Under the pieces are notes generated by a model. The model searched no databases and had not been told where the DNA came from. It saw only the letters and a list, made by a program, of their open reading frames with translations. Position numbers and translations under genes: made by a program. This document shows positions 62,210-63,271 of a stretch of 64,000 nucleotides of DNA, piece by piece; the first letter of the stretch is position 1; each line of letters opens with the position of its first letter. The stretch lies in IMG/VR virus record IMGVR_UViG_3300047325_000150; one strand, given 5' to 3'. Source of the DNA: a virus.

Positions 62210-62800
62210 TTGTTATTTGGTATAAATACAAATATGAAATTAAGTGAGTATGCAAAATTAAACTCTATCACATATAAAACTGCTTGGTTACATTTTAAAG
62301 CTGGGCTGATACCAAATGCAATTAAATTAAAAACAGGTACTATCGTCATTCAAGAAATACCAAAATTACAAGAAAAAATTGCTCTTTATAGTAGAGTTAG
62401 TTCTTCTGAAAATAAATCAAATGCAGAAGCTCAATTAGATAGATTACGAATATACGCAATTGCTAAAGGATATCAAATTAATAAAGAGGTAATTGAAATA
62501 GCATCTGGATTAAATGATGCAAGACCGAAATTAATTTTATTATTACAAGATAAGTCAATTACAAAAATTATAGTTGAACATAAAGATCGATTAACTCGAT
62601 TTGGATTTAATTATATTAATGTTCTATTGGAAAATTCAAATAGATCAATTGAAGTGATAAATGAATCACTTGATAATGATGATATCATTGCTGACTTCAT
62701 ATCAATAATTACTAGTTTTTGTGCTAGAATATACGGTAGACGTAGATCAAAACGAAAAACAGAACTATTACTTAAAGAACTAGAAAATGATCTGAAGTAG
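62210..62800 (+). mobile_element. tnpA: IS607-family-like serine recombinase TnpA (MerR-like HTH plus resolvase catalytic domain)
   Basis: N-terminal HTH (LSEYAKLNSITYKTAWLHFKAGLIP). Catalytic-Ser motif ALYSRVSSSENK. LDRLRIYA, small resolvase-domain layout. Confidence 0.6.
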
Positions 62801-62812
62801 TAAAATTCGTTT

Positions 62813-63190
62813 GAAATATGTGAATCAAGTTAAACTTGACAAAACATTCCAATTATTTAATGATAAAACAAATGAAATAATATCAAATTTAATCAATGAC
62901 TTATTATATAATCATATCAATATACCAGCTTTATTACCAAAAACAATAACAGATCAATATACGGCGCACGAATAAATCAATTATTAGCTAAAGAAGCAAG
63001 CGCAAATGCAAGATCAATACGAAATAAAATAAAGAAAATAGGCAAAACAAATAATTTACAAAAATACCAAGAAGAACTACTTAATAAATTCAATAATAAA
63101 ACACTTAAAGTCAATTGGAATGGAAATTTAAATCTAGATAGTCGATTTGTGTCAATTGAAAAAGGAAATAACTCATTAATTAGTCAACAT
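62813..63190 (+). pseudogene. frameshifted/truncated TnpB-like (OrfB) remnant
   Basis: Two consecutive frames read KYVNQVKLDKTFQLF...TAHE and ...LAKEASANARSIRNKIKKIGKTNN...VNWNGNLNLDSRFVSIEKGNNS, resembling a TnpB N-terminal region. It runs into the tRNA at 63195. Confidence 0.35.
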
Positions 63191-63194
63191 AAAT

Positions 63195-63271
63195 GCACTT
63201 GTAGCCCAACGGCAGGAGGCAACTGATTCAAAACCAGTACAGTGTCAGTTCGAATCTGACCAAGTGCACCA
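63195..63271 (+). tRNA. tRNA with Leu-reading anticodon CAA, short variable arm; paralog of the tRNA at 57310
   Basis: Acceptor GCACTTG/CAAGTGC, A73 and CCA. T arm GTCAG-TTCGAAT-CTGAC. Anticodon stem CTGA/CCAG region with loop TTCAAAA. D stem GCC/GGC. Confidence 0.55.

Follow-up and report, generated by a model that had tools for sequence, protein, structure and literature searches.

A degenerate IS607-family element with an intact tnpA and a truncated tnpB pseudogene among the tRNA genes of a huge-phage-like genome

Analysis of a 64,000-nt stretch of the viral record IMGVR_UViG_3300047325_000150 (the whole stretch is referred to here as the window) revealed the remnant of an IS607-family insertion sequence (IS) within an array of tRNA genes. 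The remnant as a whole comprises positions 62166-63177 (1,012 bp), is co-oriented with the tRNA genes, and lies between a probable YrlA-like RNA and a tRNA-Leu(CAA) gene. A left end (LE) and an intact tnpA, which encodes the serine transposase, are followed by the 5' part of a disrupted tnpB, and the right end (RE) is missing. Taken together, the locus is probably a degenerate, ordinary member of the known IS607 family, a transposon fossil that is probably immobile. Coordinates of the features are collected in Table 1.

The sole long open reading frame (ORF) at the locus, according to ORF listing and translation, spans 62210-62800 on the + strand. A sequence-only reading of the window had described it as a small serine recombinase of the IS607 TnpA type with a MerR-like helix-turn-helix (HTH), and profile searches bore out the TnpA assignment. 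The product matched the NCBIfam equivalog NF033518 (IS607 family transposase) over profile positions 2-187 of 187 (159.6 bits; curated cutoff, 110 bits) and contained the Pfam Resolvase domain (E 2.9e-16, residues 50-179 of 188). Further matches were obtained to the PHROG 6620 transposase (E 2.5e-45) and to the IS607-family TnpA catalytic domains of IS1535 (PDB 6dgb) and ISC1926 (PDB 6dgc) (E ~1e-26), along with weak secondary matches to invertase families (phrog_125, 7.8e-10). The HTH part of the description was not recovered as such: no MerR HTH was called by Pfam in the product, and its first 50 residues were covered by the full-length IS607 model only. The ORF itself is real, and its likely start is the ATG at 62234 rather than the TTG at 62210, the position given in the earlier reading, because every homologue begins with MKL; this yields a protein of 188 aa from a 564-nt coding ORF. 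The frame is undisrupted by stop codon or frameshift. Furthermore, in a protein alignment of 13 sequences (the window protein and twelve homologues, 57-71% identity), 48 columns were invariant, including Y52, R54, and V55 of the YxRVSS motif, and the window protein departed at none of them. With the frame uninterrupted and all invariant columns retained, tnpA is an intact gene for an IS607-family serine transposase with inverted domain order, i.e. DNA-binding region N-terminal and catalytic domain C-terminal.

Downstream (3') of tnpA lie ~390 nt in which two + strand frames open one after the other, followed by two tRNA genes. Intact TnpBs adjoining the closest TnpA relatives (loci L024, L026, and L019) were compared by tblastn with the entire 64-kb window. 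TnpB residues 1-72 matched 62787-63002 (44-47% identity, E 1.6e-15 to 3e-7, the lowest E at 47% identity), residues 55-131 matched 62945-63175 in the other frame (62-67% identity, E 5e-26 to 6e-22, the lowest E at 64% identity), and residues past 131 had no match anywhere in the window. The tnpB remnant is consequently 391 nt in length (62787-63177), homologous to residues 1-131 of intact 367-369-aa TnpBs, and starts 14 nt before the tnpA stop, an overlap also present in relatives. The sequence-only reading had seen two shifted frames resembling a TnpB N-terminus at this place, and the best E-values of 1.6e-15 and 5e-26 agree with it as to their presence; their extent required correction, as tnpB overlaps the end of tnpA instead of beginning after it. 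That reading had staked itself on a resolvase-domain hit for tnpA and on TnpB similarity in the downstream frames. Both were examined; Resolvase was found and the IS607 cutoff passed, and the similarity to genuine TnpBs was highly significant.

The comparison proteins are themselves considered bona fide TnpBs because they are encoded directly 3' of tnpA homologues and match both PF07282 and NF040570. In L010, L019, L020, and L021-23, tnpA is followed by a gene for a 349-413-aa protein with Pfam PF07282 (Cas12f1-like TNB), the two genes being separated by a 6-nt gap in L020 and otherwise overlapping slightly. The tnpA homologues adjoining the comparison TnpBs encode proteins 63-71% identical to the window TnpA, and the guided_TnpB model NF040570 returned 103.3 bits for L021 (above the cutoff of 100), 99.7 bits for L010 (just below), and 72.5 bits for L019.

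Three lesions were observed in tnpB. Codon 3 is TGA (62793-62795), compared with CGA in relatives; a 1-nt deletion near 62955, after ACAGAT in the alignment to L016 (the closest nucleotide relative, described below), is the cause of the frame change inside the remnant; and the gene is truncated after codon 131 of ~369. With these three lesions, tnpB is dead and is classified as a pseudogene. The earlier suggestion that the element is decaying is thereby upheld by a nonsense codon, a frameshift, a 3' truncation, and the absence of the right end. No RuvC-like nuclease (D-E-D) or zinc-finger/TNB domain, and no C-terminal TnpB match, was detected in the 64-kb window. In published work on IS607, the TnpB of intact elements cuts empty sites by means of a guide RNA specified by their 3' end, and the element is thereby retained. 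Hidden Markov models (HMMs) from Pfam, NCBIfam, and PHROG assigned no TnpB family to the repaired 128-aa fragment or to the single frames, because the models begin at about residue 146 (as placed by guided_TnpB on L010), in the part that is absent from the window. OrfB_IS605 and OrfB_Zn_ribbon cannot detect the fragment either, as they cover the C-terminal two thirds lost here. Of the HMM check proposed in the sequence-only reading (Resolvase, OrfB_IS605, OrfB_Zn_ribbon), the Resolvase search was therefore informative and the TnpB models were blind to the N-terminal fragment. Standard TnpB HMMs overlook N-terminal remnants, as seen here. A tblastn comparison of the fragment with deposited phages gave no match.

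The closest nucleotide relative of the tnpB remnant is the tnpB of L016, on IMG/VR contig 3300047325_000097, whose frame is open for at least 235 codons, as far as the contig reaches. L016 is 79% identical over 62787-63177, and similarity is lost after 63177. The identity is mosaic, with 71-77% over 62787-63060 and 91.5% over 63061-63177 (the last 117 nt), a pattern that suggests recombination or gene conversion between IS variants. The alignment includes three runs of 42-51 identical bases.

L016 is one of four same-lineage insertions at unrelated sites (L013-L016; IMG/VR sample 3300047325, contigs 000130, 000152, 000148, and 000097), which together define the left boundary of the element. 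The left flanks of the four are unrelated up to a G immediately followed by TATGATATTTAATC, and the similarity of the window to all four starts at 62166. Because four insertions with unrelated flanks all start matching there, the LE is placed at 62166, where it begins GTAT. In addition, an LE profile constructed from relatives only, with the window left out, matched 62185-62277 (E 6.3e-8). Within the LE, a subterminal motif ATAGTTAAAT is present at 62189-62198. Read as its reverse complement, the 7-nt start of this motif (62189-62195) gives TAACTAT, the RE terminus of the clade, on the minus strand. L095 (Logan ERR9963758), which was assembled independently, was 100% identical to 61810-63016, and since it is identical across this interval, neither the left junction nor the tnpA/tnpB overlap appears to be an assembly artefact.

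All four insertions L013-L016 carry one identical internal tnpA deletion, in which codon 21 is fused to the tnpA tail, and keep tnpB. Since they share this deletion at four unrelated sites, spread after the loss of tnpA is implied, and the tnpA-less, tnpB-bearing element would have relied on a TnpA provided in trans. Three of these insertions are located at contig ends, as expected of a repeat. Contig 3300047325_000152, which contributes both L008 and L014, has ~80% nucleotide identity to the window at 16.9-19.2 kb.

Intact relatives provided the expected layout of the missing portion: an LE (GTAT...), tnpA, a tnpB of ~350-370 aa overlapping the end of tnpA, a short hairpin, and an RE ending ...AACTAT. 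For a survey of the RE, 70 metagenomic loci with related TnpBs were collected and 50 were examined. In at least 44 of these 50 loci, (G)GTAACTAT or a close variant follows the tnpB stop at a distance of 10-50 nt, usually just 3' of a hairpin. Sister copies (L024/L025/L026, L037/L038, L041/L042, and L031/L033) diverge right after AACTAT, and this motif is taken from the alignments as the right-end terminus of the clade. The LE (GTAT...) and RE (...AACTAT) of relatives are not inverted repeats; an inverted motif, ATAGTTA(AA), occurs in the left ends of several relatives as well as in that of the window. The TAT shared by LE and RE suggests a TA or AT crossover core. Rfam searches of the 3' ends of eight intact relatives recovered no family, RAGATH-18 included, at E up to 0.01.

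The RE (hairpin plus AACTAT) and the 3' part of tnpB are both missing from the window: nhmmer with a profile of the terminal 260 nt from six relatives gave E 4.4 at best, with that match at an unrelated site. No inverted repeat was found linking the LE to the truncation junction, but the RE itself is missing. The frames had been described as ending exactly where the tRNA gene at 63195 begins; they do end close by, though homology stops at 63177, 17 nt before it. A search for an omega-RNA-like structure downstream, as the sequence-only reading had proposed, was negative: no guide (omega/re) RNA-like sequence was identified 3' of tnpB, where the profile of the relatives' last 260 nt finds nothing and 17 nt separate the truncation from tRNA-Leu. 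Rfam analysis of 56000-64000 returned tRNAs and one YrlA-like match only, and a promoter/terminator scan of 61700-64000 yielded nothing bearing on the element above shuffle expectation.

Table 1. Features of the IS607-family remnant, its flanks, and translation-related genes elsewhere in the window
Feature	Coordinates	Strand	Basis or remarks
IS607-family left end (LE)	62166-62233	+	Starts GTAT; four same-lineage insertions; LE profile
tnpA, intact, 188-aa IS607-family serine transposase	62234-62800	+	N-terminal DNA-binding region and C-terminal resolvase-type catalytic domain
tnpB pseudogene, piece 1	62787-62955	+	Codons 1 to ~57; ATG at 62787 overlaps tnpA end; tblastn and alignment to L016
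tnpB pseudogene, piece 2	62956-63177	+	Codons ~58-131; frame shifted by one; tblastn and alignment to L016
Spacer, 17 nt (AATTAGTCAACATAAAT)	63178-63194		Between truncation junction and tRNA-Leu; neither tnpB nor tRNA
tRNA-Leu(CAA), right flank, apparently intact	63195-63271	+	ARAGORN; Rfam tRNA 53.8 bits; not part of element
YrlA-like (Y RNA-like) tRNA mimic (probable), left flank	62030-62140	+	Fold and paralogy; ends ~25 nt before LE; not part of element
Sigma-70 factor, full length, regions 1.2-4	28459-29928		
Aspartyl-tRNA synthetase (AspRS), bacterial-type, GAD domain	31972-33786		
CCA-adding/poly(A) polymerase-family enzyme	49678-50853		
Thg1 tRNA-His guanylyltransferase	53647-54507		

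It is very likely that these observations reflect an insertion that later lost its 3' part through a deletion reaching to 17 nt before tRNA-Leu, leaving a copy that is now immobile. An intact IS607 element (tnpA and tnpB) would have inserted between the YrlA-like RNA and tRNA-Leu(CAA) of a huge-phage-like genome. Its tnpB would have gained the nonsense codon 3, the 1-nt deletion, and the truncation after codon 131, so that LE and tnpA alone remain intact, and the deletion ending 17 nt upstream of tRNA-Leu would have removed the RuvC and zinc-finger domains, the guide-RNA region, and the RE. Because the copy has one end only, and with it no LE x RE pair for TnpA, it would be unable to excise or transpose. 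Expression of tnpA may persist, possibly by read-through from the tRNA array. We infer the immobility and this order of events from the identities, boundaries, and lesions described above. Several points weigh against the deletion scenario. The tnpA gene is fully intact compared with a tnpB bearing three lesions, an asymmetry that could mean selection on tnpA. The source contig is reported at 64,809 nt, so that ~0.8 kb past the 64,000 nt of the window fell outside the RE search, and the right junction at 63177 is not spanned by the independent contig L095. Furthermore, a search of IMG/VR with a 26-nt tRNA-Leu pattern did not find a relative without the insertion.

The asymmetry between the two genes would be explained if tnpA were kept by selection, either as a transposase acting in trans on non-autonomous tnpB-only elements at other places in the phage genome or as a phage-domesticated recombinase, with the tnpB remnant as debris. 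Every conserved residue of TnpA is retained beside a tnpB with three inactivating lesions, and the tnpA-deleted elements of L013-L016 at four sites would imply TnpA acting in trans. However, no tnpB-only or second LE-bearing copy is present within the 64-kb window, and by chance one also expects to find an ORF of 564 nt intact beside a young pseudogene (its 3' part being 91.5% identical to L016); selection is regarded as unlikely. We are equally doubtful of a broader proposal, in which this huge-phage lineage split IS607 into one or a few tnpA sources, the present copy among them, and multiple scattered non-autonomous tnpB copies, with L013-L016 as examples. If true, a phage-resident population of RNA-guided nucleases would be maintained without a transposase gene in each copy. 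The right junction was also considered as a product of transposition instead of deletion, whereby TnpA used an internal pseudo-right-end in tnpB and 62166-63177 (1,012 bp) would be a truncated transposition product. Consistent with this, the same-lineage copy L014 stops precisely at the end of a native AAACTAT within tnpB, ~210 nt past the LE, the heptamer being the same as the clade RE terminus, which suggests that TnpA can use internal pseudo-ends; in the window, the junction is preceded by AACTCATT, an AACTAT-like sequence with an additional base. That junction is not a canonical RE, however, as it has no TAT terminus, no preceding hairpin, and a poor ungapped match to GGTAACTAT. One case (L014) and one near-miss are weak grounds, an ordinary deletion fits the data equally well, and a transposition origin of the junction seems quite improbable.

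Just downstream of the two tRNA genes, sequence at 63395-63511 raised the question of a second, heavily deleted copy, with an LE' at 63395 and a possible RE' (TAACTAT at 63505-63511), such that LE (62166) to RE' (63511) would constitute a composite element with tRNA-Leu and tRNA-Thr as cargo. The collinear repeats GGTAGTTTATTAAATTA (63395-63411) and ATATGAAATTACGTGA (63424-63439) match the LE at 16/17 and 15/16 positions, respectively. A gapped scan of 1270 segments placed the repeat pair second, and, allowing up to one mismatch, the window has no other occurrence of the 17-mer. Additionally, TAACTAT is present on the + strand just 8 times in 64 kb, the site at 63505 included. Profile evidence did not follow, however: the LE profile from relatives scores the site at E 5.2 (not significant), the TnpA HMM gives E 72 on the 63408-63512 peptide, the RE/3'-tnpB nucleotide profile has no match there, and blastn pieces reach E 0.66 in a sequence that is AT-rich. 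A second copy at 63395-63511 is unproven, and the composite is judged very improbable. The same interval has a 29-aa + strand ORF starting MKLRE, as in TnpA relatives, located 3' of the LE-like repeats. Finally, small serine recombinases are common in phages, and the weak phrog_125 match (7.8e-10) would be compatible with a phage-native serine resolvase/invertase gene next to unrelated non-coding DNA, with no transposon involved. Yet the product passes the IS607 equivalog cutoff, 68 nt upstream of the gene and the sequence downstream of it are common to copies at four unrelated sites, and the downstream DNA is homologous to TnpB (E ~1e-26). The IS607 cutoff, the four shared insertions, and the TnpB homology exclude this reading for practical purposes, and the decayed IS607 insertion with a secondary 3' deletion is retained.

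IS607-family transposition is known to require tnpA only and involves no inverted repeats and no target duplication (PMC6188088). The transposase binds subterminal repeats and brings the two ends together, and strand exchange takes place at a core of 2 bp (PMC6188088). The window element resembles IS607 (Helicobacter pylori), IS1535 (Mycobacterium), and ISC1926 in encoding a serine transposase with an N-terminal DNA-binding and a C-terminal catalytic region. As in the family at large, tnpB is directly 3' of tnpA and overlaps it, the termini are not inverted repeats, and short AT-rich subterminal motifs are present; unlike IS607-family insertion sequences, the window copy is without a right end and without two thirds of tnpB. 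The clade termini (GTAT... at the LE and ...AACTAT at the RE) also differ from the GG dinucleotide of IS607 itself (PMC6188088). The nearest comparison is with L010/L024, L025, L026, and L019, which occur in phage-like neighbourhoods and agree with the window copy in how tnpA and tnpB overlap and in how the LE is organised. Their TnpA proteins are 66-71% identical to that of the window, and residues 1-131 of their TnpBs are 60-67% identical to the tnpB fragment. These loci keep the RuvC domain, the TNB/zinc-finger, the terminal hairpin, and the AACTAT end, whereas the window copy has none of them.

IS607 TnpBs are RNA-guided nucleases; their guide comes from the 3' end of the element, and their target-adjacent motif (TAM) is beside the LE (PMC11061315). 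ISFba1-type IS607 TnpBs, with a RAGATH-18-derived guide RNA (PMC11061315), are similar to those of the present clade in having a compact TnpB (~390 aa) 3' of tnpA, a 3' guide, and a TAM by the LE. They differ in that the NCBIfam model IS607_TnpB gives the clade relatives 26-27 bits against a cutoff of 350, no RAGATH-18 was detected, and the window is without the guide-RNA region. Because Rfam is empty at the 3' ends of relatives and IS607_TnpB scores are this far below cutoff, the TnpB of the clade is assigned, on these profile scores, to a lineage other than the RAGATH-18-associated IS607 TnpBs. IS607-type tnpA was present in 53 deposited phage genomes, among them two metagenomic phages (485 and 636 kb) and Thermus phage TMA, in which it is paired with tnpB. 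The TMA pair (TMA_132/TMA_131) is likewise IS607-type and in a large phage, and its TnpA is 53% identical to that of the window. Both TMA genes are annotated as complete coding sequences (tnpB, 489 aa), in contrast to the tnpB pseudogene within a tRNA array described here.

The array into which the element inserted consists of 17 tRNA genes called by ARAGORN, all on the + strand, spanning 56714-63360, in agreement with the earlier description of an insertion inside a tRNA cluster. The tRNA-Leu(CAA) gene at 63195-63271 is no recent copy of the other tRNA-Leu genes of the array; a recent duplication of the same-anticodon genes at 58191/58366 as the source of the tRNA-Leu/Thr pair (63195-63360) was rejected on comparison. 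Two additional + strand matches to the Rfam tRNA model were not called by ARAGORN, at 57997-58068 (30.5 bits, gathering score 29) and at 58581-58649 (25.2 bits, below the gathering score), and may represent additional or degenerate tRNA genes. A 267-aa ORF is also found inside the array (59198-60001, minus strand). Its product has repeats rich in Cys at the N-terminus and, at the C-terminus, an HNH-like motif (SRDHLIS...H..N); it had no Pfam match at E 1e-3 and may encode a homing endonuclease.

The left flank of the element is probably a second YrlA-like Y RNA of the phage tRNA array. The first, at 58461-58570 (+), is a full-model match to Rfam YrlA (RF02553) with 30.8 bits and a local E of 4.5e-5, below the gathering score of 69, and is flanked by a tRNA-Leu(CAA) gene and a weak tRNA-like match. 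Sequence 62030-62140 was called by neither ARAGORN nor Rfam, and no RF02553 match was obtained in 62020-62240. Its paralogy to 58461-58570 is evident from conserved outer-stem flanks and from paired changes in the T stem and acceptor-like stem. The fold comprises an outer stem (AGGATCT/AGATCCT), a T-arm (GTTGG-TTCGATT-CCAAC), an acceptor-like stem (ACAACAT/ATGTTGT) closed by a GCAA loop, with the 3' acceptor strand ahead of the 5' strand, and a D-arm. A circularly permuted tRNA gene at 62060-62130 was considered and dropped in favour of a YrlA-like mimic, which has exactly that topology. No Ro60/TROVE match was found among ten large ORFs scanned.

The window contains a set of translation-related genes typical of huge phages (Table 1), and on this gene content the genome looks huge-phage-like. 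No close relative of the window was detected among deposited phages. A scan of GTDB genomes with TnpA recovered relatives at 50-63% identity over many bacterial and archaeal phyla, with no host signal; given this spread, nothing can be inferred about the host. Separately, 16880-19190 contains tandem paralogous minus-strand ORFs of ~150-230 aa each that cross-match each other and match both ends of L008 at 75-85% nucleotide identity. From these matches the region is interpreted as a repeated gene family shared with related phage contigs.

As a dead insertion sequence, the remnant leaves knowledge of IS607 and TnpB unchanged. Its value for annotation is in accounting for ~1 kb of otherwise puzzling sequence in a phage tRNA array. 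Furthermore, it points to a phage-associated lineage of compact TnpBs (350-370 aa) with a sharp ...AACTAT end and no Rfam-described guide RNA, a possible source of candidates for genome editing. Decay in reciprocal directions, with tnpA only remaining here and tnpB only in related phages at four sites, offers a small natural illustration of autonomous/non-autonomous IS607 partitioning in huge phages.

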